A stretch of 64,000 nucleotides of DNA, taken from Myxococcota bacterium (lineage in GTDB: Bacteria > Myxococcota_A > UBA9160 > UBA6930). Below the pieces are notes generated by a model. The model searched no databases. It was given only the letters and a program-made list of their open reading frames with translations, and was not told the origin of the DNA. Where the stretch lies: the NCBI GenBank assembly GCA_036560185.1, contig DATBRS010000237.1:523-64522 (forward strand), given 5' to 3'. Below, piece by piece: positions 2,728 to 28,555 of the stretch; within the stretch, counting starts at the first letter, position 1; every line of letters begins with the position of its first letter. The position numbers were made by a program, and so were the translations under genes.

Positions 2728-2964
2728 CTACGAGACGCGCGCGCGCGCCTGAACGATGTCGCTCTCCATGATCGTCTTGCGCTTGTCCGCGGCGGCGAGC
2801 GCGTGGGCCTCGCGAGCGAGCCGCGCGATGTAGTCCTCCGCGGCGGCGACGGCCTTGTCGATGGCGTCGCCCGAGACGCGCATGCCGTCCCCGTGCTTCG
2901 CCAAGAGTCGCTTCACAACCGCATTCGGTAGATCGCTCACAGGGTCCTCCCGAGACGGGCGCAT
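2728..2964 (-). CDS. Bacterial histone-fold protein (archaeal HMf / Bdellovibrio Bd0055 HBb-like singlet)
   Basis: 78-aa ORF. LPNAVVKRLLAKHG-DGMRVSGDA-IDKAVAAAEDYIARLAREAHALAAADKRKTIMESDIVQA aligns by eye to HMfB (recalled from memory: [59 protein letters not shown]), giving helix, RVS loop, long helix, RKTI loop, helix. ATG 2964 lies 1 nt after the larC stop. An internal GTG at 2940 has a strong SD (GGGAGGA, 4-nt spacer) and would give 70 aa. Confidence 0.8.
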   Translation of the reverse strand: MRPSREDPVSDLPNAVVKRLLAKHGDGMRVSGDAIDKAVAAAEDYIARLAREAHALAAADKRKTIMESDIVQARARVS

Positions 2965-2965
2965 C

Positions 2966-4330
2966 CTACGAGCGGCGGCTCCGCGTTGTCAACGCGCGCA
3001 GCGCAGCTTCTTCCGCCGCGCGCATCACTTCTCCGAGCGGAAGCCGGCGCGCCTGGGCAATGCGCTTCGCGTCGTCGTACTCGGCGGAGGCGCTCGCTCG
3101 CCCCTGCGCGTCGTAGGCGAGCTTCACGCGCAGGCGTCCGTGGGGGGTCGCGACGCGTACGATCTCGCGCGGGAGGAGCAGGCGCTCCGCCTCCTGCACC
3201 CGCACGCCGAGCGAGCCGGTCTCGCGCAGCACGAGCTGCGCCAGCTCGCCGCGCCGGTGCGGCGGCGCGATCACCGTCAGCGCGTAGCCCGGCCGATTCT
3301 TCTTCATCTGGGCGTGGCTGAGGGCGACGTCGAGCGCCCCGGCCGCGAACAGCCGCTCCAGCGCGAGGTCGAAATGCTCGGGCACGAGGTCGTCGAGGTG
3401 CGCCGTGAGCACGCTCACGGTGTCGCGCAGCACGCCGCCGTCGTGGCCGAGCACGGCGCGCAGCACGTTCGGCATCGGGCCGGGGCGATCGTCGCCCGCC
3501 CCGTGGCCGATCGCATCGATCGTCAGCCCCGGCAGCGCGCACCACTCGTCGACGATCGTGCGCAGGATCGCGGCGCCGGTCGGCGTCACCGTCTCCCAGG
3601 CGACGGGCGCCGGCGCGACCGGCGCTCCCCGTAACAATTCGAGCACGGCCGGCGCTGGCAGCGGCAGGCGCCCGTGCGCCGTCTCGACCGTGCCGTGCCC
3701 GAGCGCGGCCGGCGTCGAGGTCACGCGCTCGACGCGCAGTAGCTCCAGCGCCAGCGCCGCGCCCGTGATGTCGACGATCGCGTCGAGCGCGCCCACCTCG
3801 TGGAAGTGAACGCGCGCGACCGGGACGTCGTGCACGCGCGCCTCGGCCTCCGCGAGCGCGGCGAAGATCGCCTGCGCGCGATCGCGCACCGCGGACGCGA
3901 GCTTCGCGCGCGCGAGCAAGCGGCGAATCTCGTCGTAGCGCCGGCCGCCGCCCACGTGCGTGTGCGCGTGATCGTGATCCCCGGCGTGGGAATGTGCGTG
4001 AGCGCCGTGGGTGTGCGAGCCGTCGCCGGCCGCGGCTCTGATACGTCGTGCCTTGGGACGCCTGCGCTCCACACTGCGCGCGATCACCTCGACGTAGCGC
4101 GCTGCGAGCGCGCCGCGTTTCACTCGGGTGACGCGCAGCCGATGCGCGATGCCGAGGCCCGCGAGCCCGGCCTCGAGCTCGCGCAGCGGCAGCCCGGCGT
4201 CGAGCAGCGCGCCGAGGAACATGTTCCCCGAGATCCCGGAGAACGTGTCGAGGTGGAGCACGGTGCGCGGCCGTGCGCCGGCGTGGCCCGGCGCCGCGAC
4301 GCGCGACTTCGGCTGGCGGCGCTTCGCCAC
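2966..4330 (-). CDS. larC: Nickel-pincer cofactor biosynthesis protein LarC (DUF111 nickel insertion / cyclometallase)
   Basis: 454 aa with a GTG start. N-terminal LDTFSGISGNMFLGALLDAGL. His-rich metal-binding stretch HTHGAHAHSHAGDHDHAHTH. Length is typical of LarC. Confidence 0.9.
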   Translation of the reverse strand: MAKRRQPKSRVAAPGHAGARPRTVLHLDTFSGISGNMFLGALLDAGLPLRELEAGLAGLGIAHRLRVTRVKRGALAARYVEVIARSVERRRPKARRIRAAAGDGSHTHGAHAHSHAGDHDHAHTHVGGGRRYDEIRRLLARAKLASAVRDRAQAIFAALAEAEARVHDVPVARVHFHEVGALDAIVDITGAALALELLRVERVTSTPAALGHGTVETAHGRLPLPAPAVLELLRGAPVAPAPVAWETVTPTGAAILRTIVDEWCALPGLTIDAIGHGAGDDRPGPMPNVLRAVLGHDGGVLRDTVSVLTAHLDDLVPEHFDLALERLFAAGALDVALSHAQMKKNRPGYALTVIAPPHRRGELAQLVLRETGSLGVRVQEAERLLLPREIVRVATPHGRLRVKLAYDAQGRASASAEYDDAKRIAQARRLPLGEVMRAAEEAALRALTTRSRRS

Positions 4331-4331
4331 G

Positions 4332-5081
4332 TCAGCTCCGATTGATCAGCGACGCGACCACGGCCGCGCCGAAGCCGTTGTCGATGTTCACGACCGAGAC
4401 GTTCGAGGCGCAGCTCGACAGCATCCCGAGCAGCGCCGCGAGCCCGCCATAAGAAGCGCCGTACCCGATGCTGGTCGGCACCGCGATCACCGGGCGCGCG
4501 ACCAGCCCGCCCACCACCGAGGGCAGCGCGCCCTCCATGCCCGCGATCGCGATCAGGACGCGCGCGGCGCGCAGCGCTTCCGACTCCGCGAGCAGGCGGT
4601 GCAGGCCCGCGACGCCGACGTCCGCGATCAGCTCGACCTTGTTGCCGAGCTTCGCCGCGACGGCGGCGGCCTCGCGCGCGACCGGCAGATCCGCGGTGCC
4701 CGCGCACACCACGACGATCGTGCCGACACCCGTGATCGCGACCTCCGCGGGCCCGTACCAGAGCAGGCGCGCGCCTGGGTCGTAGTCCCCGATCGGCTCG
4801 AGCGTGAGCACGCGCTCCGCGGCGGCGTGCTCGACACGCGTGACGAGCGCCGTCTGCCCGGCCGCGCGCAGCGTGCGCACGATGCTCGCGATCTGCTCCG
4901 GCGTCTTCCCCAGCCCGAACACCACCTCCGGCATGCCCTGCCGCAGCGCGCGATGCGTGTCGACGCGCGCGTGCTCGGAAGCGACGAAGGGAAGCTGCGC
5001 GAAGTGTTCGAGCGCGTCGTCCGTCGACAGCGCACCGTCTCGGACGGCTTCGAGCAGCGCGCGTACGCGATCGGGATTCAT
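4332..5081 (-). CDS. larB: Nickel-pincer cofactor biosynthesis protein LarB (PurE-like NaAD carboxylase/hydrolase)
   Basis: 249 aa. PurE-like core VVCAGTADLPVAREAA...AIAGMEGALPSVVGGL...VIAVPTSIGYGAS. The stop lies 1 nt before the larC start. Confidence 0.9.
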   Translation of the reverse strand: MNPDRVRALLEAVRDGALSTDDALEHFAQLPFVASEHARVDTHRALRQGMPEVVFGLGKTPEQIASIVRTLRAAGQTALVTRVEHAAAERVLTLEPIGDYDPGARLLWYGPAEVAITGVGTIVVVCAGTADLPVAREAAAVAAKLGNKVELIADVGVAGLHRLLAESEALRAARVLIAIAGMEGALPSVVGGLVARPVIAVPTSIGYGASYGGLAALLGMLSSCASNVSVVNIDNGFGAAVVASLINRS

Positions 5082-5133
5082 CTCGCTTCACCCACTTCGC
5101 GCGGCGCGCGAACCGAGTGAATAGCCGAGCGAG

Positions 5134-5721
5134 CTAGGCGATCGCCTCGGGCGCCCAGACGAGCAGCGCGCGCAGCACGTCTCCGCGGTCGAACAGCTCG
5201 ACTTCGATGCACAACACCGGGCGCTCGCCCGCGCGCTCCGCCACGCCGGCGGCGAAGGCGCCGGTGCCGTCGACGAGCGCCAGCTGCGGCGGCGACGGCA
5301 GCACCACGACGCCGAGCAGTTCGCCGATCGCGGAGAGCGCGTGCGACGCGAGGATGTTGCCCACTTCGCGCAGCGCCGACTCCGCCTGCAGCGGCGCGCC
5401 GGCAGATTCTCCGAGCAGCATCCGAAGCAGCGCGCCGCGGCTCGCGGGCGTGAGCAGCAGCGCGAGCGTGCCGCCGAGCCCGCCAACGACGTCGAACAGA
5501 ACTCCCGTGCCTTCGCGCGCCTCGCAGCCGAGCCGCGCCGCAAGCTCGGCCCCACGGTCGCCCGCCTCGAGCAGGCGCGCGGCCGGCAGGCCCATCTCGA
5601 TCGGCCGAGCGAGCAACGTCGCGAGTGCGCCGGCGGCGTGCCCGGCCCCGATGCTGGTGAGCTCGCACAGCCGGTCGACCGCGCGCGCCTGGGCTTCGTC
5701 GTGGTGGGCCGCGGCGGTCAT
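5134..5721 (-). CDS. CheC-like chemotaxis phosphatase family protein
   Basis: 195 aa. CheC-type motif SALREVGN followed about 20 aa later by P (LPSPP). A first, degenerate copy is DRLCELTSIG. The start overlaps the cheA stop by 4 nt (ATGA). Confidence 0.75.
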   Translation of the reverse strand: MTAAAHHDEAQARAVDRLCELTSIGAGHAAGALATLLARPIEMGLPAARLLEAGDRGAELAARLGCEAREGTGVLFDVVGGLGGTLALLLTPASRGALLRMLLGESAGAPLQAESALREVGNILASHALSAIGELLGVVVLPSPPQLALVDGTGAFAAGVAERAGERPVLCIEVELFDRGDVLRALLVWAPEAIA

Positions 5722-7345
5722 GCGAGCGGGTTCAGGTCCAGCAAGAACACCGGCACGCCGTCGGAAAGAACCGTCAGGCCGGCCAAGCCGCGCGCGCGCG
5801 CCAGCAGGCGCGGCAGCGGCTTCACGGTGAGCTCGCGCTGGCCGTACAAGCGCTCCACGAGCAGGCCGACGCGCTCCTCGCGTACCTCGGCGAGCACGAG
5901 CGGCGCGACTCCCGTCTCGCGCCGGGCGCCGAAGCCGAGGCGCTCCGCGAGGTCGATCACGAGCAGCGGCGCATCCTCGACGATCGCGAAGCGCTCGCGG
6001 CCCGCGTCCTCGATGGTCGCCGCGTCGACTTCGACGACGCGCTCCACTTTCGCGATCGGCAGCGCGACGATCTCTCCCGCCACGCCGAGCAGCAGCATGC
6101 GCTGCACGGCGGCGGTCACCGGCACGAGCAGCACCGTCGTCGTGCCGAGGCCCGGCTGCGAGGCGAGCTCGACGCTGCCGCCCAGCGCCTCGATCGTCGC
6201 CTTGACCGCGTCCATGCCGACGCCGCGGCCGGAGATCTTCGAGACCTCGCCCGCGGTCGAGAGGCCCGGCCGGAAGACGAGCGCGGCGATCTGATCGGGC
6301 GGTAGGTCGTCCGCGAGGTCGCTGTGCAGGAGGCCTGCCTCGATCGCGCGGCGCTTCACCTTCTCGAGATCGATGCCGCGGCCGTCGTCGCTCACCGCGA
6401 TGCGCACGTGGTCGCGATCGCGGCGCGCGTCGATCACGATGCGGCCCGCCGCGGGCTTGCCCGCGAGCGCGCGCGCGTCGGGCGTCTCGAGGCCGTGATC
6501 GACCGCGTTGCGCACGAGGTGCACGAGCGGATCGCCGATGCGATCGAGGATCGCGCGATCGAGCTCGAGCTCGGCACCGCGCAGCTCGACGTCGACCTGC
6601 TTGCCGAGCTCCCGGGCAATCTCGCGCGCGAGCCGCGGCAACGGCTCGACCGCGCGTAGCAACGGCGCGGTGCGCAGCCCGAGGCCGCGGCGCTGCAAGT
6701 CGGCGACGACGCGATCCATGCGGTCGAGGCCCGCGACCAGCTCCGCCGAGGCGCCGCGCTCGCGCTGCGCCATGCCGCGCAGCTGGCTCGACGAGAGCAC
6801 CACTTCACCGACCGACGAGAGGAAGCGATCCAGCGTCTCCGCGCGCACGCGCAGCGTCGGCGCGGGCGCAGCCGCGGTCGGTGCTGAAGCGGGGGGCGCT
6901 GGCGCGACCGGCTCGAGGGGCGCGGCGTCGCTGGCGACAGCGGCCGCGCTCAGGCTTTTTTTGGCGGCGGCCCGCTCGGCGCGCCGGACAGCTCGGCGAT
7001 CAGTCCGGGATCCGCGGCGGGCGGTTCCCCGGTTGCGCGCAGCGCGCCGACCATGCGCTCGAGGCCTTCGAGCGCGCGGAACAGCAGTGCGCTCGCGCGT
7101 GCGTCCACGCTGCCGGCGGCGCGCTGGCTCGCGAGCAGGTCTTCGAGGCGATGCGCGAGCTCGGTGGGGCCCTGATAATCGAGCGAGGCCGCCATGCCCT
7201 TGATCGAGTGGGCCATGCGGAAGGCGACGTCGATCGCCTCCGCGTCGGCGGCGTTCTTCTCGAGCGCGAGCAGCGCGCGGCTCAGGTCCGCCAGGTGCTC
7301 GGTCGCTTCCTCGAGGAACAGCGCTCGGTACTTGGCGAGGTCCAT
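5718..7345 (-). CDS. cheA: Chemotaxis histidine kinase CheA, interrupted: P1/Hpt in one frame (7345..6950), P3-P4-P5 in the -1 frame (6956..5718)
   Basis: The Hpt ORF (131 aa) has the H-box FRMAHSIKGMAASL. The second frame carries the dimerisation, HATPase (DPLVHLVRNAVDHG, GRGVGMD) and CheW-like P5 domains. The frames meet at an A7 run (6956..6962). A -1 shift gives a fused product of about 542 aa with junction GPPPKK/SLSAAAV. Confidence 0.85.
6920..6962 (-). other. Candidate -1 frameshift cassette inside cheA (or a homopolymer assembly error)
   Basis: Minus strand reads CC A AAA AAA GCC TGA. The zero-frame heptamer is A_AAA_AAA (6962..6956) with the stop 2 codons later. After the 6-nt spacer GCCTGA comes the hairpin GCGCGGC(6949..6943)-CGCT-GTCGC-CA-GCGAC-GCCGCGC(6926..6920). 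Confidence 0.4.
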
Positions 7346-7493
7346 TTGGGTTGGGCTCCGTTCGCCTGGGGCTCACTGCGCGCGGTCTGCGCCGCTTGTC
7401 GCGGCGCGGGCCGCTTGCGGCTTCTCGAGCTGCGGTCGACCGCTGCGCCGCCTTGTCGCTTCCGAGCCCGAGGGCAGTCGTGCGCGCTCTCGA

Positions 7494-7862
7494 CTACTCG
7501 GACTTCTCGACGACCTTCGCGAGCGTCGTGATCACGGCGTCGGGCTTGAAGGGCTTCACGATGAAGTCCTTGGCGCCCGCTTGAATCGCCTCCATCACGA
7601 GCGTCTCCTGGCCGAGCGCGCTGCACATCACGATCGTCGCGCTGGAATCCTCGGAGCGGATCGTGCGCACGGCATCGATGCCCGAGCGCTTCGGCATCAC
7701 GATGTCCATCATCACCAGATCGGGCCGCAGCTTGCGGAACTTGTCGACGACCTCGACACCGTCGGAAGCTTCGCCGACCACCTCGTAGCCCTCGGGCTCG
7801 ATGATGTCGCGAATCATCTGACGCATGAACGACGCGTCGTCTGCGATTAGGACCCTCTTCAT
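7494..7862 (-). CDS. cheY: Chemotaxis response regulator CheY
   Basis: 122-aa single REC domain: MKRVLIADDASFMR...DLVMMDIVMP...IVMCSA...AKDFIVKPF. Confidence 0.95.
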   Translation of the reverse strand: MKRVLIADDASFMRQMIRDIIEPEGYEVVGEASDGVEVVDKFRKLRPDLVMMDIVMPKRSGIDAVRTIRSEDSSATIVMCSALGQETLVMEAIQAGAKDFIVKPFKPDAVITTLAKVVEKSE

Positions 7863-7879
7863 TGCGTTTCTCCCTGCGG

Positions 7880-8329
7880 CTACTCGCCGCTCAGCGATCC
7901 CTCGACCAACATCAATGCGCGCGCCAGCAGGCGGCGCGGATCGAGCACGTTCAGCACGCGGCCCTCGTGCGGCCGGCGCTCCGCCACCGGGCTGTCGCTG
8001 TGCGACGGCGCGGCGCCGCCGGCCACGAGGCCCAAGATGCGGTCGACCGGCAATCCGTAGCGGTCGGGGTCGTCGGCATCGCCGGCGAGCACGAGCAGGC
8101 GCGTGGGCGCGCTCTCGCCCGAGAACTCGAGCAGTGCGCCGGCGAACACGACCGGCAAGGCATCGCCGTGGTGGTTCACCACGCCAAAGCTCGCGCGCGG
8201 CAGCATCGGCACCGGCGCGACACGCGCGCTCTCCGCGACCTCGACGACGCCGGAGATCGGCAGCGCGAACAGCGCCTCGCCGAGCTCGAAGGCGAGCAGA
8301 CGATTCTCGCTGACGTCGAGCGAGCTCAT
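7880..8329 (-). CDS. cheW: Chemotaxis coupling protein CheW
   Basis: C-terminal 149 aa of track ORF 7880..9613, starting at [25 protein letters not shown]. CheW-like fold sequence. Its ATG overlaps the mcp stop (ATGA, 8326..8329). Confidence 0.9.
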
Positions 8330-9591
8330 CGCGTGCCCCCTTGGCGCGCGCGCTGCGTGGCGTCGGCGAGCTCGCGCGCGACCGCAGCCAGCTCCCGCGA
8401 CGATTCCGCGATCTCCGCCATTGCCTCGATCTGTCGCTCCGCGGCGCCCGCCACGAGATCGACGGACGTGACGTGCGCCGAAGCGACTTCGGCGACCTCG
8501 CTGATCGCCGCCACCATGCGCTCGGCGCCCTGAGTCTGCACGTCGGCCTGCTCGAAGATCTCCTCGGCGCGGGACGACGCCTCGCCGACGGCGGCCTGAA
8601 TCTGCCCGAGCGAATGCGCGATCGTGTTCACGTCGTCGCGGCCTTCGGCGATCACCTGGCCCGAGTGGCGCATCTCGTCGGCGACGTTGTGCGTGTCGCT
8701 CTCGATCTCGCCGACCAGCTTCGAGATTTCGTCGGCGCTGCGCTGCGCGCTCTCGGCGAGCTTGCGAATCTCGTCGGCGACGACCGCGAAGCCGCGCCCC
8801 GCTTCGCCGGCGCGCGCGGCCTCGATCGACGCGTTCAGCGACAGCAGGTTGGTGCGCGACGCGACGCTCGTGATCAGCTCGGTGATCTGGTGCACGTGCC
8901 GCGTCTTCGCCTCGAGCTCGAAGACCATCTTGCCGGTGTTGTCCATGCGCTCGAACACGTTGCGCATCTTCTCGATCGCGAGGCGCGAGACGTCGACGCC
9001 GGAGTTCGCCTTCTGATTCGCCTCGGCCGCGAATCCGAACGCCTCGCGGGCGCGCGACGCGTTCGCCTCGATCGCCGAGGCGATCTCGGCGGACAGCCGC
9101 TGCACGTCGGCGAGCAGCGTCTTCTTGTTCTCGCTGCCCTTCGCGAGCTCGCCGATCGTCTCGGCGATCTCGCGCGCGGTCGCGTCGGCGCGCTTCCCGC
9201 CCGAGGCGAACCCGTCGACGGCGCGCTGCAGGCCTTCCGATACCGCCTGTGCGTCGCGCGAGAGCGCACCCAAGCGGTCGCCTAACAACGCGGCGCCCGC
9301 GGCCAGCTCGTGGGCCTCGTCTTCGACGCCGGAGGCCGCGCCCAGCGCGTCCAGCGCGGCGTAGTCCCCGCGCGACGCGCGGCGCACCAGCTGCGCGGCA
9401 TGCGCGTGCTCGCTGACGAGCCGGCTGCCCAGCGCCGCACCCGTCGCGCCGCCCACGATCACGGCGAGCGCGTTGAGCAGCGCCGCGTCGCCAGAAATCC
9501 CGAGCGCGTGCGCGAGCGTGGGCACGGCCAACGCCGTTCCGGCAGCCGCCAGCGAGCCGAGGGCGAACTTGTGGACGAGGGAGAGACGCAC
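8326..9591 (-). CDS. Methyl-accepting chemotaxis protein with a membrane hairpin and no periplasmic sensor domain
   Basis: Highly conserved MCP signalling core [35 protein letters not shown]. The upstream part of track ORF 8326..10062 overlaps thiL out of frame and is Arg/Ser-rich. The proposed start is the GTG at 9591 ([18 protein letters not shown]...). The start is uncertain. Confidence 0.85.
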
Positions 9592-9652
9592 GGCGTGCGT
9601 ATCGGCGCGGCAACCGAGGCGCTTGACGCCCCTGGGCGGGTTTCCGCCTCGG

Positions 9653-10606
9653 CTAGAAGTGCCGGTACCCGCCCGCGCGGACCGCGCGCGGCAGGCCCAA
9701 CACCGCCGGCTTCCCCGCCTCGATGCGCCCGATCTCCGTAACGGCGAGCCCGAGCCTCCGGCTGAGCGCTTCGGCCCGTGCGGTCGCGCCGCGCGCCGTG
9801 AAGAGCAGCTCGTAGTCCTCGCCCCCCGCGAGTGCGAGGCGCTGCGGGTCGACGCCTGCGCGCGCACAAGCGGCCGCGAACCCGCGCGGCACCGGCACCC
9901 GCGCCGCGTCGATGCGCGCCCGCACGCCCGACGCGCGGCAGACGTGCGCGAGGTCGCCCGCGATGCCGTCCGAGACGTCGATGCAGGCGCCGATACCGCG
10001 CAGCCCCGCGAGCGCCCGCCCGGCCGCGAGGCGCGGTTCGGGCGCCCCGCGTACGTGCCCACGCGCCCGCGCGAGCGCGGCGCCGCCGAGTGTCCCGGTG
10101 ACGAACACGCGATCCCCGGCGCGCGCGCCGCGGCGCAGCAACGCAGCGCCGCGCCTCACCGCACCGATCGCGGTGATCGCGACGCTGATCTCCCGCGCGC
10201 GCGCGACGTTTCCGCCGACGAGCGGACACGCACAGCGCACCGCGAGCTCCAGCATCCCGCGCGCGAGCCCGAGCGCCCGCGCGAGCGGCGTCGCTGCGGG
10301 GGCAGCGAGCGCCACCACGAAGCCGAGCGGCCGCGCGCCCATCGCTGCGAGATCGGACAAGTTCGCCGCGAGTGCCCGCCGCCCCGCCACCCGCGGCGTC
10401 TCCTGCGCGAAATCGAAGTGCACCCCCTCGACGAGCGCATCCGTCGTCACGACGACGTCCTCATCCGCCCGCACCCGCAGCAGCGCAGCGTCGTCCCCGA
10501 TCCCGAGCACCAACCCGGCAAACCGCGTCCGCCCAAACGCCCGCCGAGCCATCCCCTCGATACGCGCGATCAGCCCGAACTCTCCGACGTCGCGAATCGC
10601 CAACAC
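9653..10606 (-). CDS. thiL: Thiamine-monophosphate kinase
   Basis: 317 aa. GEFGLIARI...GIGDDAALL...[13 protein letters not shown] is the typical ThiL/AIR-synthase-related N-terminus. Confidence 0.9.
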
Positions 10607-10929: not shown

Positions 10930-13350
<2,421 letters not shown>

Positions 13351-16715: not shown

Positions 16716-18536
<1,821 letters not shown>

Positions 18537-18577
18537 CGCTGCCGCGCCCCCCACCGGCGCTCAGCGAGCGACGCCGG

Positions 18578-19294
18578 TCAGTTCTCGGGCTCCGTTTCTT
18601 CGGGCTTCGTCTTCGGCGCCACCGCCACCACCACGCGCGCCGGTCGTAACAAGCGATCGCGCAGCCGGTAGCCTTTTTGGTAGACGCGAGCGACGCTGCC
18701 TGGCGTTACGGATCCCTCCTCCATCTGCGCGACGGCCTCGTGGACGTTCGGATCGAACGCGACCCCCTCGGCCTCGATCACCTCGACGGCGTGCTTGCCG
18801 AGCACCGTGACGAGCTCTCGCTGGGCGAGTTCGACGCCCTGCAACAGCGCGACCAAGTCCTTGGCTCCACTCCCTTTCGCGTGATCCACCGCGCGCTCGA
18901 GGTTATCGACCGTGTTGAGCAGCTCCTTGACGAGGTTCTCGTGCCCATACTGGAGCACCTCTTGCCGCTCCCGGAGCTGGCGCCGCCGCAGGTTGTCGAG
19001 GTCGGCCGACGTCCGGACGTAGCGATCCTGGTTGGCGGCCGCTTCGCGCTTGGCCGTCTCCAGCTCGGCCTTGGCCGCGTCGAGCTCCCGGCCGAGCTTC
19101 TCGCACTCCGCCTTGTAGGCCTGGATCAGCGATTCCGTGGCGTCGGGCTTGCCCTCGCGGGCGCCGGCCGCCGGGCGGCCGCCGACCGCGGCTTCTGCCT
19201 CGCGCAGTGCCGCCTCGAGCTCGGCCCCCATCTCGAGCTTCCCGCCCGGGGCTTCCTCGCCCGCGTCTTCACTCTGCTTGGGTCGGTCGCTCAC
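18578..19294 (-). CDS. grpE: Nucleotide exchange factor GrpE
   Basis: C-terminal 238 aa of track ORF 18578..20839 (DRYVRTSADLDNLRRR...GYRLRDRLLRPARVVV). The GTG start at 19294 overlaps the hrcA stop (GTGA). Confidence 0.9.
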   Translation of the reverse strand: MSDRPKQSEDAGEEAPGGKLEMGAELEAALREAEAAVGGRPAAGAREGKPDATESLIQAYKAECEKLGRELDAAKAELETAKREAAANQDRYVRTSADLDNLRRRQLRERQEVLQYGHENLVKELLNTVDNLERAVDHAKGSGAKDLVALLQGVELAQRELVTVLGKHAVEVIEAEGVAFDPNVHEAVAQMEEGSVTPGSVARVYQKGYRLRDRLLRPARVVVAVAPKTKPEETEPEN

Positions 19295-20313
19295 GCTCGC
19301 GCTTGCTCCGAGAGGAGCTTCGAGACATAGCGAACGAGCGGGATCACGCGCGCGAAGTCCATGCGCCCGGGGCCGATCACGCCGAGTGTGCCGGTGCTGG
19401 CGCCTCTCCGGCCGTAGCGCGTCGCGACGAACGCGAGGCCCTCGAGCCCGTCGGCGGCGAGCTCGGCGCCGAATGCGACGCGAACGCCGCTGGCGTCGAG
19501 CACTTGGTCTAGCAGGCCGAGCAGGCGCTCCTTGTCCTCGACGGCTCGCAGCAGCGCGCGCACGCGCGCCGGGTCGTGAAACTCGGGCTGGTCGAGCAGC
19601 GCGAGGCGCGTCGCGATCACGACGTCGTGCTCGCTCGCGTCGGCGGCCAGCGGCAGGTCGCGCACCAGCCGCTCCAAGAGCAGGTCCGCCCGCGTGCTCA
19701 GCGCCGCGGCTTCGGCGACTAGCCGGCTCCGGATCTCGCGCAGCGTGGTGCCTGCGAGCCGCTCGCACAGAGCCGCGGCCATGCGGTCGAGCTCGGCCTG
19801 ATCCCCCTGCCCGGCGTGCTCGACGACGCGCTGATAGGCGCGTCCGCTCTCGGAGACGAGCACCGCCAGCACGCGCTCGCTCGAGAGCCGTGCGAAGGAC
19901 AGGTGTCGCAGGACGACTTCCTCGAGGCGCGGCGGCACAACGAAGCCGAGCAGGCGCGTGGTCTCGGAGAGCAGCCGCGAAGCGCTCTCGTCGAGGCTCG
20001 CGCCCTCCTCGAGCCGGCCTTCGAGGTCGCGCTTCTCGAAGCTGCCGAGCTCGCGCACCGCGAGCAGCTGATCCACGAAGGCGCGCATGCCGCGCGCCGT
20101 GGGCACGCGGCCCGCCGAGCGATGCGGCTTGTCGACCAGCCCGATCTCTTCGAGCTCTGCGAGGGTGTTGCGGACGCTCTGCGGCGACAGGTGGACCGGC
20201 AGCAGCGAAGCGATCGTGTCCGACGCGACCGGCGCCGCGTCTCCGACGAAGCACGACACCACGGCGCGCAGCACGTTGCCCTGTCGTTGCGACAGCAGCG
20301 CCGGTGCGGCCAC
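19291..20313 (-). CDS. hrcA: Heat-inducible transcription repressor HrcA
   Basis: Proposed GTG start at 20313 gives 340 aa. N-terminal winged-helix region QRQGNVLRAVV...LSPQSVRNTLAELEEIGLVDKPHRSAGRVPT. The start is uncertain. Confidence 0.88.
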   Translation of the reverse strand: MAAPALLSQRQGNVLRAVVSCFVGDAAPVASDTIASLLPVHLSPQSVRNTLAELEEIGLVDKPHRSAGRVPTARGMRAFVDQLLAVRELGSFEKRDLEGRLEEGASLDESASRLLSETTRLLGFVVPPRLEEVVLRHLSFARLSSERVLAVLVSESGRAYQRVVEHAGQGDQAELDRMAAALCERLAGTTLREIRSRLVAEAAALSTRADLLLERLVRDLPLAADASEHDVVIATRLALLDQPEFHDPARVRALLRAVEDKERLLGLLDQVLDASGVRVAFGAELAADGLEGLAFVATRYGRRGASTGTLGVIGPGRMDFARVIPLVRYVSKLLSEQARA

Positions 20314-20345
20314 TCGCGGTTGTGTGTTCCCCGGACCTGAAGGCA

Positions 20346-20394
20346 CGGCGCGCTCTCCCCGTGCAAGTGTGCGCGCCGACGCAGGCGCGGTCAA
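20346..20394 (-). promoter_or_regulatory. Candidate hrcA promoter (TTGACC / CACACT, 17-nt spacer) with an 8-bp inverted repeat covering the -10
   Basis: Minus strand has TTGACC (20394..20389), a 17-nt spacer, then CACACT. CGGCGCGC (20378..20371) and GCGCGCCG (20353..20346) flank a 17-nt spacer. This is not a CIRCE sequence. Confidence 0.25.
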
Positions 20395-20477
20395 CGCGCA
20401 CAAGCGTCGAGCTCGGCTTGCTCGGATCGAGGCCGCTGCTCGACTTCGCTCGGCCCTCGCTCCGCGTGCACTGGTGC

Positions 20478-21665
20478 TCACACGAAACGTGCTGCGACCT
20501 CGTCGGCGAACAGCCAGCCAGCCGGGCTGAGCGCGAGATCGCCGTTCGAGCGCTCGAGGACGTGGCCGGCCGCGCGGGCGGCGTCGATCGCGGGCGCGAA
20601 GAACGTGCGCGGCGGTGCCCCGAACTCGGCTGCGAACGCCCGCGCCTCGAGGCCCTCGCGCGTGCGCAGCGCCAGGAACACGGCCTCGCTGCGGGCAGTC
20701 TCCTCGGCGAGCACCTCGCGCTCGGGCGGCTCGCAGCGCCCGCCCTCGATGCGCGCGAGATAGTCCTCCAACCCGCGCTCGTTCGCGCTGCGTGCACCGA
20801 AGGGCTCGCCCGCGCGCGGCGGCTCGTGCGAGTGCGCACCGACGCCGAGGCCGAGCACTGGGCGCCGCTGCCAGTAGCGGCGGTTGTGGCGGGCGGCGTG
20901 GCCGGGGCGCGCCCAGCTCGAGACCTCGTAGCGCTCTAGCCCGGCAGCTTCGAACGCCGCGCCGAGCGCCAGCATCATGTCCGCGGCGGTGTCGTCGTCG
21001 GGGACCGCGAGCTTGTCCGCCGCGACGGCACGGGCGAAGGGCGTACCCGGCTCGAGTGTGAGGGCGTAAGCGGAGACGTGCTCGGGGCGATGCCCGAGGG
21101 CGGCGGCCGCGTCGCCACGCACCGCGTCCAGCGTCTGAGACGGCGCGCCGAAGATCAGGTCGAGGGACAGATTCGCGAAGCCGGCGGCTCGCGCGGCCTC
21201 GATGAAGGCGCCGGCTTCCGCGCCGCGATGGGCGCGCCCGAGGCGGCGCAGCGTGTCGTCGTCGAACGACTGGACGCCGATCGAGAGGCGCGTGACGCCG
21301 GCGGCTCGAAACGCCGCCAGGCGCTCGCGCTCGGTGGTGCTCGGATTCGCCTCGAGGGTGACCTCTTCGAGCGGGCCGTCCCAGGCAGCCCGGACGGCCT
21401 CGATCAAGCGGGAGACGGATCCGGGCGTGAGCAGAGACGGCGTCCCGCCCCCGAGGTAGAGGGTTGCGAGGCGGTGGCCCGCGAACCCGTCGCGCCGCCC
21501 TTCCAGCTCGGCGAGCAGCGCCGCGACGTAGCGCTCCTCGTCAGCGCGCCGGAGCGTCCGGGCCGCGACGACCGGGAAGTCGCAATACGGGCAAATCCGC
21601 TCACAGAACGGCACGTGGAGGTACACGCCGAGCGTCGGATTTCCGCGTTCAATAATGGCTGTCAC
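20478..21665 (-). CDS. hemW: Radical SAM heme chaperone HemW (HemN-like, oxygen-independent coproporphyrinogen oxidase family)
   Basis: 395 aa. CxxxCxxC motif in LHVPFCERICPYCDF, plus a HemN C-terminal domain. Confidence 0.9.
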   Translation of the reverse strand: MTAIIERGNPTLGVYLHVPFCERICPYCDFPVVAARTLRRADEERYVAALLAELEGRRDGFAGHRLATLYLGGGTPSLLTPGSVSRLIEAVRAAWDGPLEEVTLEANPSTTERERLAAFRAAGVTRLSIGVQSFDDDTLRRLGRAHRGAEAGAFIEAARAAGFANLSLDLIFGAPSQTLDAVRGDAAAALGHRPEHVSAYALTLEPGTPFARAVAADKLAVPDDDTAADMMLALGAAFEAAGLERYEVSSWARPGHAARHNRRYWQRRPVLGLGVGAHSHEPPRAGEPFGARSANERGLEDYLARIEGGRCEPPEREVLAEETARSEAVFLALRTREGLEARAFAAEFGAPPRTFFAPAIDAARAAGHVLERSNGDLALSPAGWLFADEVAARFV

Positions 21666-27781: not shown

Positions 27782-28429
27782 CTACGCTCGCTTCGGGCGT
27801 CGGCCGAGCCACACGAGGCCGCTGAGGCCGGCTGCCATGAGGCTCAGCACCGGCGGCTCGGGCACGGTGACGGTGTACGAGTTCTGCACCGAGTTCAGCG
27901 TCGAGACCTTCTTGATCCGGATCGCTTCCTCGACCTCGAACGACGCGGCGCCGGGCGAGAACGTGTCCGAGTCCGAGAGCAGCGAGGAGTTGTTGCGCAT
28001 CAGCGTGAGGAGGAACGTGCCCTCGTCGCTGGTCGGATCCTCGATGTCCTTCTCGACCTTGATGCGGCCGGTGGTCCGGGTCGCGTCCATGGCCATCGAC
28101 GCGCCGGTGATCAGGCCCGAGTTCGCGGTGACCTTGTAGGTGATGTTCAGCCTCTTCAGCCCGCCGCTGCTCGCGTCGAACGCCGACGAGGAGAGCACGT
28201 AGCCGTCGCTCACCGTCGTCACGGTGTAGAGCGAGAGGTTGCCGCTCAGCTTCTTCAGCTTCGTCACCGAGAAATCGCTGAACGTCAGCAGCCCGTCGTC
28301 GGACTGGAACGAGTTGACCGAACCGTTCACCAGATCGTCGAGTGTGTAGGTGGCGGCTAACGCCGGGAGCGCGCACACCGCGGTAGCAGCCAACACCAAC
28401 CCGCATCGCAGCGTTTTCAAGATCAACAT
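27782..28429 (-). CDS. PEP-CTERM sorting-domain secreted protein
   Basis: ATG at 28429 (MLILKTLRCGLVLAATAVCALPALA signal) with GAGAGG upstream. The C-terminal VPEPPVLSLMAAGLSGLVWLGRRPKRA matches PEP motif, TM helix and basic tail. The gene is visibly more AT-rich than its neighbours. Confidence 0.8.
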   Translation of the reverse strand: MLILKTLRCGLVLAATAVCALPALAATYTLDDLVNGSVNSFQSDDGLLTFSDFSVTKLKKLSGNLSLYTVTTVSDGYVLSSSAFDASSGGLKRLNITYKVTANSGLITGASMAMDATRTTGRIKVEKDIEDPTSDEGTFLLTLMRNNSSLLSDSDTFSPGAASFEVEEAIRIKKVSTLNSVQNSYTVTVPEPPVLSLMAAGLSGLVWLGRRPKRA

Positions 28430-28555
28430 GCCTCGCCTCTCTGTAGTGGGAGCCCTGGAGAAGGGTCTCCGCGAAGGGAGTGGGAGGGAGAGGGCGAAAG
28501 TGGCGCGCAGATCTGCTCGCATTTCGCTGCCCGGCATCGCCGATGGCGAGGGGGG

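Follow-up and report, generated by a model that had tools for sequence, protein, structure and literature searches.

A conserved gene of an uncultured Myxococcota lineage encodes a histone-fold protein with archaeal helix lengths

Two histones of bacteria have been examined in depth, HBb (Bd0055) of Bdellovibrio bacteriovorus (PDB codes 8FVX and 8CMP) and HLp of Leptospira perolatii (9QT0), and both are shortened forms. Generalisations drawn from them hold that an α2 helix short by 4–5 residues is a diagnostic feature of singlet histones in bacteria (Hocher 2023) and that only archaea have histones of the nucleosomal type. The residue R19 was also reported as unconserved in bacterial singlets (Hocher 2023). 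A later classification separated α3-truncated histones, with an α3 of only 3–4 residues, from nucleosomal histones, with a full-length α2 and an α3 of about 10 residues, and reported face-to-face (FtF) histones in Myxococcota (Schwab 2024). For the archaeal histone HMfB, the roles of the DNA-contacting residues (R10 and R19 as minor-groove anchors; K53 and T54) and criteria for hypernucleosome formation have been described (Henneman 2018). Here we analyzed a stretch of 64,000 nucleotides from a Myxococcota bacterium (assembly GCA_036560185.1, contig DATBRS010000237.1, forward-strand positions 523 to 64,522; hereafter the window), which carries on its reverse strand a gene for a 70-residue histone-fold singlet. 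The protein combines full-length helices and the DNA-anchoring residues of archaeal histones with replaced dimer–dimer interfaces, suggesting that it would bend or coat DNA as dimers.

The open reading frame (ORF) is real and encodes a histone-fold protein. It matches PF00125 at 43.3 bits (cut-off 26.4) and PF00808 at 42.3 bits (cut-off 21.4), the latter over positions 3–64 of a 65-position profile, and sequence searches returned 485 homologues with E-values down to 1e-34. Modelled with AlphaFold2 on the basis of 27 family members, at a predicted local distance difference test score (pLDDT) of 85.2, the protein contains three helices of 11, 28 and 11 residues, the last of them at pLDDT >90. 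When this model was compared with the PDB using Foldseek, the best matches were nucleosome/hypernucleosome chains of the Asgard histone HHoB (9qv5/9qv6), with template-modelling (TM) scores of 0.83–0.87, a root-mean-square deviation of 1.0 Å and 36% identity, followed by CENP-W, NF-Y, H4/H2B and HPhA; the top 50 matches listed were all histone-fold chains, each at a probability of 1.00. Searches of PDB sequences likewise retrieved HHoB with the single sequence (E 9e-5) and H3, HmvA and HPhA with the profile. A preliminary description of the window, made from its letters, had read the gene as a complete bacterial histone-fold singlet and had named a fold search, a helix–loop–long helix–loop–helix layout and conservation of the ORF in related genomes as the tests of that reading. 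The profile matches, the model and the Foldseek matches all bear it out, and so does conservation: the ORF was found in at least 100 species-level metagenome-assembled genomes (MAGs). To obtain this count, one genome for each GTDB species was scanned, which yielded a relative in 100 genomes; 80 loci, whose histones are 62–97% identical to that of the window, were kept. Counts over 81 loci below comprise these and the window, and counts over other loci refer to the 80.

Seven residues (K10, R11, R21, R54, K55, T56 and D61) are invariant in the alignment of the 27 family members. Both loop signatures singled out in the preliminary description, RVS in loop 1 and RKTI in loop 2, are present (Table 1). 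R11 and R21, the counterparts of the minor-groove anchors R10 and R19, are thus kept throughout, and R54, K55, T56 and D61 are common to HMfB and HBb too. With 28 residues in α2 and 11 in α3, the protein has the helix lengths of nucleosomal histones as defined by Schwab 2024, and the length of α3 is constant across the family. Taken together, the alignment and the predicted structure show a canonical fold with archaeal helix lengths, in which the DNA-anchor residues (HMfB R10, R19, K53 and T54) and the R52–D59 clamp are preserved.

The residues through which archaeal dimers join each other are, in contrast, mostly replaced. At the four-helix bundle, HMfB L46, H49, D59 and L62 correspond to L, A, D and Q in the window protein and to S, A, D and K in the family consensus; the change of H49 to alanine is nearly invariant, L62 is replaced by lysine or glutamine, and L46 becomes serine in most members. 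The three HMfB stacking pairs are all lost: K30–E61, E34–R65 and R48–D14 become A–V/D, D–A and A/V–K. Loop 1, which takes part in stacking, is one residue longer than in HMfB (HGDGM versus AG-AE), although its glycine is kept. Scored against Henneman 2018, the bundle and the stacking interface would receive ‘-’ or ‘+/-’. Oligomerization of the archaeal kind is therefore not expected here.

With HMfB L46, H49 and L62, and likewise the three stacking pairs, for the most part replaced, we favor dimer-wise bending or coating of DNA over wrapping, with a probability of roughly 0.6. The same residue argument was made for HBb, which was then shown experimentally to be a DNA-bending dimer (Hu 2024), and the window histone may work in the same way. 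In the mechanism we propose, the gene would be transcribed from its own near-consensus sigma-70-type promoter, and the product would form a head-to-tail (handshake) homodimer, like all histone folds. This dimer would bind DNA without sequence specificity through its paired L1–L2 loops and α1 helices, and the protein would serve as an abundant nucleoid-associated protein whose dimers bend or coat DNA, as those of HBb do, rather than assembling archaeal-style hypernucleosomes. The alternative of a true nucleosomal-type bacterial histone, in which tetramers or stacks joined through α2/α3 wrap DNA as in HMfB, HHoB or, with another geometry, HLp, appears unlikely in view of the bundle and stacking replacements described above. 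It draws on the full-length α2 and α3, the conserved length of the latter, the retention of R21 and of G17 (HMfB G16), the fact that the closest solved structures are those of the hypernucleosome-forming HHoB, and the leucine that the window’s own subclade carries at the position of HMfB L46.

Several observations weigh against dimer-wise bending or coating by an abundant protein. The full-length α2 and α3 are the part of the fold that makes the four-helix bundle in nucleosomal histones, and their retention under selection may mean that dimers touch through other residues; chiefly because of the full-length α3, a tetramer should not be dismissed. Helix α2 is alanine-rich, with alanine at the HMfB core positions L28 and L32. 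High expression is suggested by the near-consensus promoter and the Shine-Dalgarno sequence, signals that fall short of proof. All hosts appear to be uncultured, with no isolate among the 80 kept loci or the named matches. Finally, the net charge is only about +1.7. This low charge would also suit a histone fold used for protein–protein assembly instead of DNA binding, as in TAFs, CENP-S/X and other scaffolds. Such a role is in keeping with the Foldseek ranking, where CENP-W and NF-Y chains stand almost level with histones, and with the warning that prokaryotic histone-fold proteins need not all be chromatin proteins (Schwab 2024). We nevertheless regard it as very improbable, since all alignable DNA-contacting residues of HMfB are invariant in the family, the isoelectric point (9.3–9.5) is close to those of HMfB (9.6) and HBb (8.9), and the protein consists of a single domain with no partner gene nearby.

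The MAGs that encode the histone are nearly all titled Myxococcota, Myxococcales or Deltaproteobacteria, and among the host replicons are chromosomes 5.8 and 4.5 Mb in size, as well as contigs longer than 3 Mb; MAG contig JBIOJJ010000004.1 (GCA_044450705.1) also encodes the protein. Within a sequence library whose entries were clustered at 50% identity, one representative stands for the family, and only 39 representatives matched at 1e-10 or better. Relative to the window, the histones have a median identity of 71%; the corresponding values are 79% (GroEL), 73% (CheY), 68% (LarB), 58% (LarC) and 41% (the response regulator encoded next to the histone). The median Nei-Gojobori ratio of nonsynonymous to synonymous substitution rates for the histone is ~0.2, a rough value given the strong bias in G+C content at third codon positions (GC3). 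Comparison of these sequences shows a single-copy gene that holds a fixed housekeeping position and is under purifying selection across an uncultured Myxococcota lineage, in at least 100 species. The relatives that come next are from bacteria too, among them a 72-residue family in MAGs of Acidobacteriota/Vicinamibacterales, on contigs of up to 5.47 Mb, and a Lentisphaerae protein, so full-length bacterial histones may be more widespread than this Myxococcota clade. The hidden Markov model (HMM) of the family scored the Acidobacteriota family at 67.8 bits and any archaeal structure tested at 28 bits at most. Several ‘binchicken’ records (L003, L004, L012, L019, L028 and others) are titled ‘uncultured Spirochaetales’, ‘Geobacter’ or ‘Opitutales’; in gene order they agree with the Myxococcota MAGs and their histones are 62–96% identical, and the titles are probably placeholders or wrong taxonomy.

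The longest ORF at the locus, as given in the ORF list of the window, spans positions 2728..2964 of the reverse strand and 78 codons, but the true coding sequence (CDS) is the 70-codon frame that begins at an internal GTG (Table 1). Of the 81 loci, 80 have a start codon aligned to this GTG (72 an ATG, 8 a GTG). The close relatives L004, L005 and L013 lack the upstream ATG (2964), and in L004 an in-frame stop lies 24 nt 5′ of the start. We assigned the 70-residue CDS because the aligned start codon is conserved, a GGAGG-like site precedes it, the upstream ATG is not kept and most homologues are 70 residues long. A 78-residue product started at the upstream ATG is ruled out, as that codon is unconserved and lies inside the −10 hexamer; the segment between it and the GTG likely contains the transcription start and the 5′ untranslated region of the histone gene. 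The G+C content of the CDS by codon position is 0.72/0.47/0.89. The 1-nt gap to larC in the preliminary description holds for the longest ORF, whose ATG occupies 2964–2962, but not for the real CDS, which starts (2940) 25 nt past the larC stop.

Upstream of the histone gene lies a sigma-70-type promoter, TTGACA-18-TAGGAT, which matches the consensus at 10 of 12 positions. It was the only site found in 1 kb of 72% G+C DNA, and 0.0 ± 0.1 such sites were expected in shuffled sequence. Promoter matches of at least 9/12 occur within 90 nt 5′ of the start in 55 of the 81 loci, compared with 1.3% of random 90-nt windows, and the −10 element of the relatives is conserved as TA[GC]GAT, TACGCT or TAGCAT. 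A promoter-like motif is kept where other genes lie upstream, a thiL-like gene in L072 and an α/β-hydrolase gene in L036. Since the gene retains its own promoter whatever its upstream neighbor, it constitutes an autonomous transcription unit. Most of the 81 loci have a GGAGG-like site within ~15 nt 5′ of the start codon, and the Shine-Dalgarno sequence that had been noted ahead of the internal GTG in the window is indeed there. A scan for intrinsic terminators 3′ of the histone gene found none.

The rare codons listed in the preliminary description (CTA, AAT, GTT, CGA and TTG) are present, but they do not make the codon usage atypical. A value akin to the codon adaptation index was 0.653 for the histone gene versus 0.713 ± 0.113 for random 69-codon windows, which places it at the 20th percentile, and its GC3 of 0.89 lies within the 0.82–0.95 of other genes in the window. 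The codon usage is native to the genome, and a foreign origin is unsupported. Five of the seven rare codons sit in codons 4–13 (2902–2931, reverse strand; hand-calculated hypergeometric p ~0.002), a cluster that probably reflects the usual relaxation of G+C content and reduced mRNA structure near a start codon; its place just after the GTG supports that start. Native GC3 and codon usage also bear on whether the gene is an assembly contaminant or a recent archaeal transfer with no settled role in its host. A patchy occurrence of histones among bacteria may stem from contamination or transient transfer (Hocher 2023), and the architecture of the protein is archaeal-like. Yet the same locus, from lon and the thiL-like gene to groEL, recurs in ~80 genomes, some of them with Mb-scale chromosomes, and the nearest relatives are bacterial by the HMM scores given above; this synteny effectively refutes the idea, to which we give almost no weight.

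Table 1. Coordinates of the histone gene, its expression signals, the parts of its product and the adjacent genes in the window.
Feature	Position	Strand	Basis or remark
Histone-fold CDS, 70 aa	2728..2940	-	GTG 2940-2938, stop TAG 2730-2728; Pfam, aligned starts, homologue length
5′ extension MRPSREDP of the longest ORF	2941..2964	-	Non-coding; ATG unconserved, overlapped by the −10 hexamer
Shine-Dalgarno sequence GGGAGGA	2945..2951	-	4 nt 5′ of the GTG
−10 hexamer TAGGAT	2963..2968	-	Covers larC stop TAG (2968-2966) and first two bases of the spurious ATG
−35 hexamer TTGACA	2987..2992	-	Within larC 3′ end; 18-nt spacer to −10
α1 (residues 6-16, with K10 and R11)	2893..2925	-	AlphaFold2; K10/R11 invariant; R11 = HMfB R10
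Loop 1 motif RVS (R21-V22-S23)	2872..2880	-	R21 = HMfB R19 ‘sprocket’ arginine
α2 (residues 24-51), 28 residues, full length	2788..2871	-	AlphaFold2; ungapped versus HMfB
Loop 2 motif RKTI (R54-K55-T56-I57)	2770..2781	-	R54-D61 pair = RD clamp
α3 (residues 59-69), 11 residues, full length	2734..2766	-	AlphaFold2
larC (nickel-insertion protein), 454 aa, neighbor outside the histone unit	2966..4330	-	PF01969, E 9e-127
Convergent response-regulator gene, 457 aa	1329..2702	+	PF00072; stop 25 nt from histone stop

A Pfam scan of the neighboring genes agreed with the preliminary description that the histone gene closes a che-lar string, and showed this string to encode MCP, CheW, CheY, Hpt, CheA, CheC, LarB and LarC. 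The conserved order runs lon, a thiL-like AIRS gene, the MCP-cheW-cheY-Hpt-cheA-cheC block, larB, larC and the histone gene, followed by the convergent response-regulator gene, where present, and groEL. larC lies directly upstream of the histone gene in 47 of the 80 other loci and 0.4–1.1 kb away in 29; it is absent in 3 and undeterminable in 1. The three loci lacking larC (L037, L040 and L072) have the thiL-like gene directly upstream and neither che nor lar genes. In L036, the only one of the 29 separated loci that was examined, the insert (5130–5936) is an α/β-hydrolase gene (PF12146), and the promoter-like motif of the histone gene lies 3′ of it. Downstream, groEL is found in 58 of the 80 other loci and the response regulator in 50 (33–77% identity); elsewhere groEL is directly convergent. 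Like larC, the lon, thiL-like and groEL genes hold their positions around the histone gene in related loci.

The larC link, for which a survey of relatives had been proposed, is thus real but positional rather than functional, and belongs to the general collinearity that this housekeeping region shows: a promoter of its own serves the histone gene, which is also retained without the che-lar block, 29 loci carry an insert, and synteny is just as strong for lon, the thiL-like gene and groEL. By the same observations, a functional tie to larC or to the che genes is ruled out as the main explanation of the gene. A role as pathway-specific regulator or accessory protein for the che-like/larBC operon, such as that of an NF-Y-like transcription factor or a chemosensory output, would account for the place of the gene at the operon end and for the presence of larC upstream in 76 of the 80 other loci, even though LarC identity drops to ~50%. 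GenBank labels point partly in this direction, with some members named ‘NFYB/HAP3 family transcription factor subunit’ and others ‘histone-like protein’ or ‘hypothetical protein’. NF-Y/CBF factors, however, are obligate heterodimers of two different histone-fold subunits, joined by a third, sequence-specific one, and only one histone-fold gene was found in each locus of 6–12 kb; with a conserved promoter of its own and loci devoid of che and lar genes, we judge an operon-bound role highly improbable.

Other features of the surroundings were noted in passing. Within the che block (5134–10062, reverse strand), which also encodes CheC, CheY, CheW and one MCP, Hpt (6950–7345) is encoded apart from the CheA kinase core (5718–6848), and no CheB or CheR genes were seen in the block. 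The block is missing in three related loci and is down to one receiver gene in L049. The larB and larC genes, larB being of the AIRC family, are adjacent with a 1-nt gap (2966–5081, reverse strand). The ORFs scanned between 1 and 50 kb gave no match to the LarA/LarE family, so the enzyme that uses the nickel-pincer cofactor is not encoded nearby. The only Pfam match of the response regulator is its receiver domain, at residues 239–333, with long flanks on both ends. The histone gene lies in a proteostasis neighborhood that comprises groEL (65–1192, partial), lon (10930–13350), dnaK (16716–18554) and hrcA (19291–20481), the last three all within 20 kb, together with a HemN-like radical-SAM gene (20478–21665). 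Further along, an ORF of 251 codons (27782–28537, reverse strand) combines a coding-like GC3 of 0.90 with an unusually low G+C content at first codon positions (0.54) and has no Pfam match at E 1e-5.

A conserved bacterial family of this kind breaks both generalisations drawn from HBb and HLp, and the sole trace of it that we found in the literature is one line of a supplementary table. Supplementary Table 1 of Hocher 2023 lists one member, from Deltaproteobacteria bacterium UBA6930 (DKAI01000097.1-5, our locus L040), which is not discussed there; the 65-residue filter of that study would have dropped it from their analysis of α2. Full-text literature searches retrieved no paper analyzing a full-length histone family in Myxococcota. 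If the protein proves abundant and DNA-binding, it would allow one to test directly what features of the histone fold determine whether DNA is bent, coated or wrapped; as a simple bending dimer, it would provide a natural ‘full-length but non-tetramerising’ control. The family is also relevant to the origin of bacterial histones, which may have come from archaea once or several times or may predate the split. A bolder and rather doubtful scenario is that this full-length HMf-type histone is a major chromatin protein of the whole uncultured Myxococcota clade and oligomerizes through a non-archaeal α2/α3 interface to wrap DNA, with sister families in Acidobacteriota and Lentisphaerae. If true, the protein would in effect found a bacterial lineage of histones with nucleosomal architecture, and in evolution it would supply a missing, full-length link from the nucleosomal histones of archaea to the truncated HBb type, whose loop-2 signature it shares.

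Compared with known systems, the window histone resembles HBb as a tailless, mildly basic bacterial singlet that lacks the archaeal tetramerization residues. We verified the HBb sequence against 8FVX and 8CMP; the two proteins share the loop-2 stretch S-A-x-A-D-x-RKT[IV]M-x-x-DI and 38% identity over 52 columns (hhalign E 1.6e-6). HBb differs in an α2 that is one turn shorter (a 4-residue gap), a single-turn α3, the loss of the loop-1 arginine (MNTS versus MRVS here) and S9–K10 in place of A7–V8. Membership of the HBb type is ruled out by the lengths of α2 and α3 and by the retention of R19; more broadly, the window protein shows none of the marks of bacterial α3-truncated histones (a short α2, an α3 of 3–4 residues, loss of R19 together with S9–K10). 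The preliminary description had likened the protein to both HMf and Bd0055/HBb. The likeness to HMf stands, with full helices and archaeal-like loops, whereas assignment to the HBb type fails, given the α2 gap and the mostly missing α3 of HBb. In sequence, the family is roughly equidistant from the archaeal and HBb groups, by the hhalign E-values to HMfB and HBb and by HMM scores of 28.1 bits for HmvA, 22.7 for HHoB, 17.6 for HBb, 14.6 for HMfB and 5.8 for an α3-truncated PDB chain, 9f2c. HLp and the FtF histones are bacterial histone-fold singlets as well. What defines FtF histones, which are α3-truncated, is a torus-shaped tetramer dependent on the profile residues R48 and N52; HLp is not among the PDB sequence matches of the window protein or its profile, nor do the histones of cultured Nannocystaceae (Myxococcota, cited by Hu 2024) occur among the listed or named matches.

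The singlets of Acidobacteriota (Vicinamibacterales; P0146 cluster) and Lentisphaerae, of 72–76 residues and with MEE2963380.1 and OGV57618.1 (Lentisphaerae) as examples, share the architecture of the window histone and the motifs LP.A.VKRLL ... R[VI]S ... RKTI; they belong to other phyla, are less than 50% identical to it and are likewise uncharacterized. Among archaeal proteins, HMfB (1A7W/5T5K), HPhA (1KU5) and the Asgard HHoB (9QV5/9QV6) are 68–71 residues long, against 70 here, and have full-length α1, α2 and α3 helices in common with the window histone. They also share its N-terminal LP motif, R10, R19 within RVS, the RKT of loop 2, the R52–D59 clamp and G16 (G17 here), at 35–36% identity, with the model superposing on HHoB at 1.0 Å. 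The alignment with HMfB (hhalign E 1.2e-5 over 66 columns) leaves α2 and α3 ungapped; its gaps are small and fall at the N-terminus and within loop 1. The hosts of these HMf-type proteins are archaea, whereas the window histone is encoded on bacterial contigs that also carry groEL, lon, dnaK and che genes.

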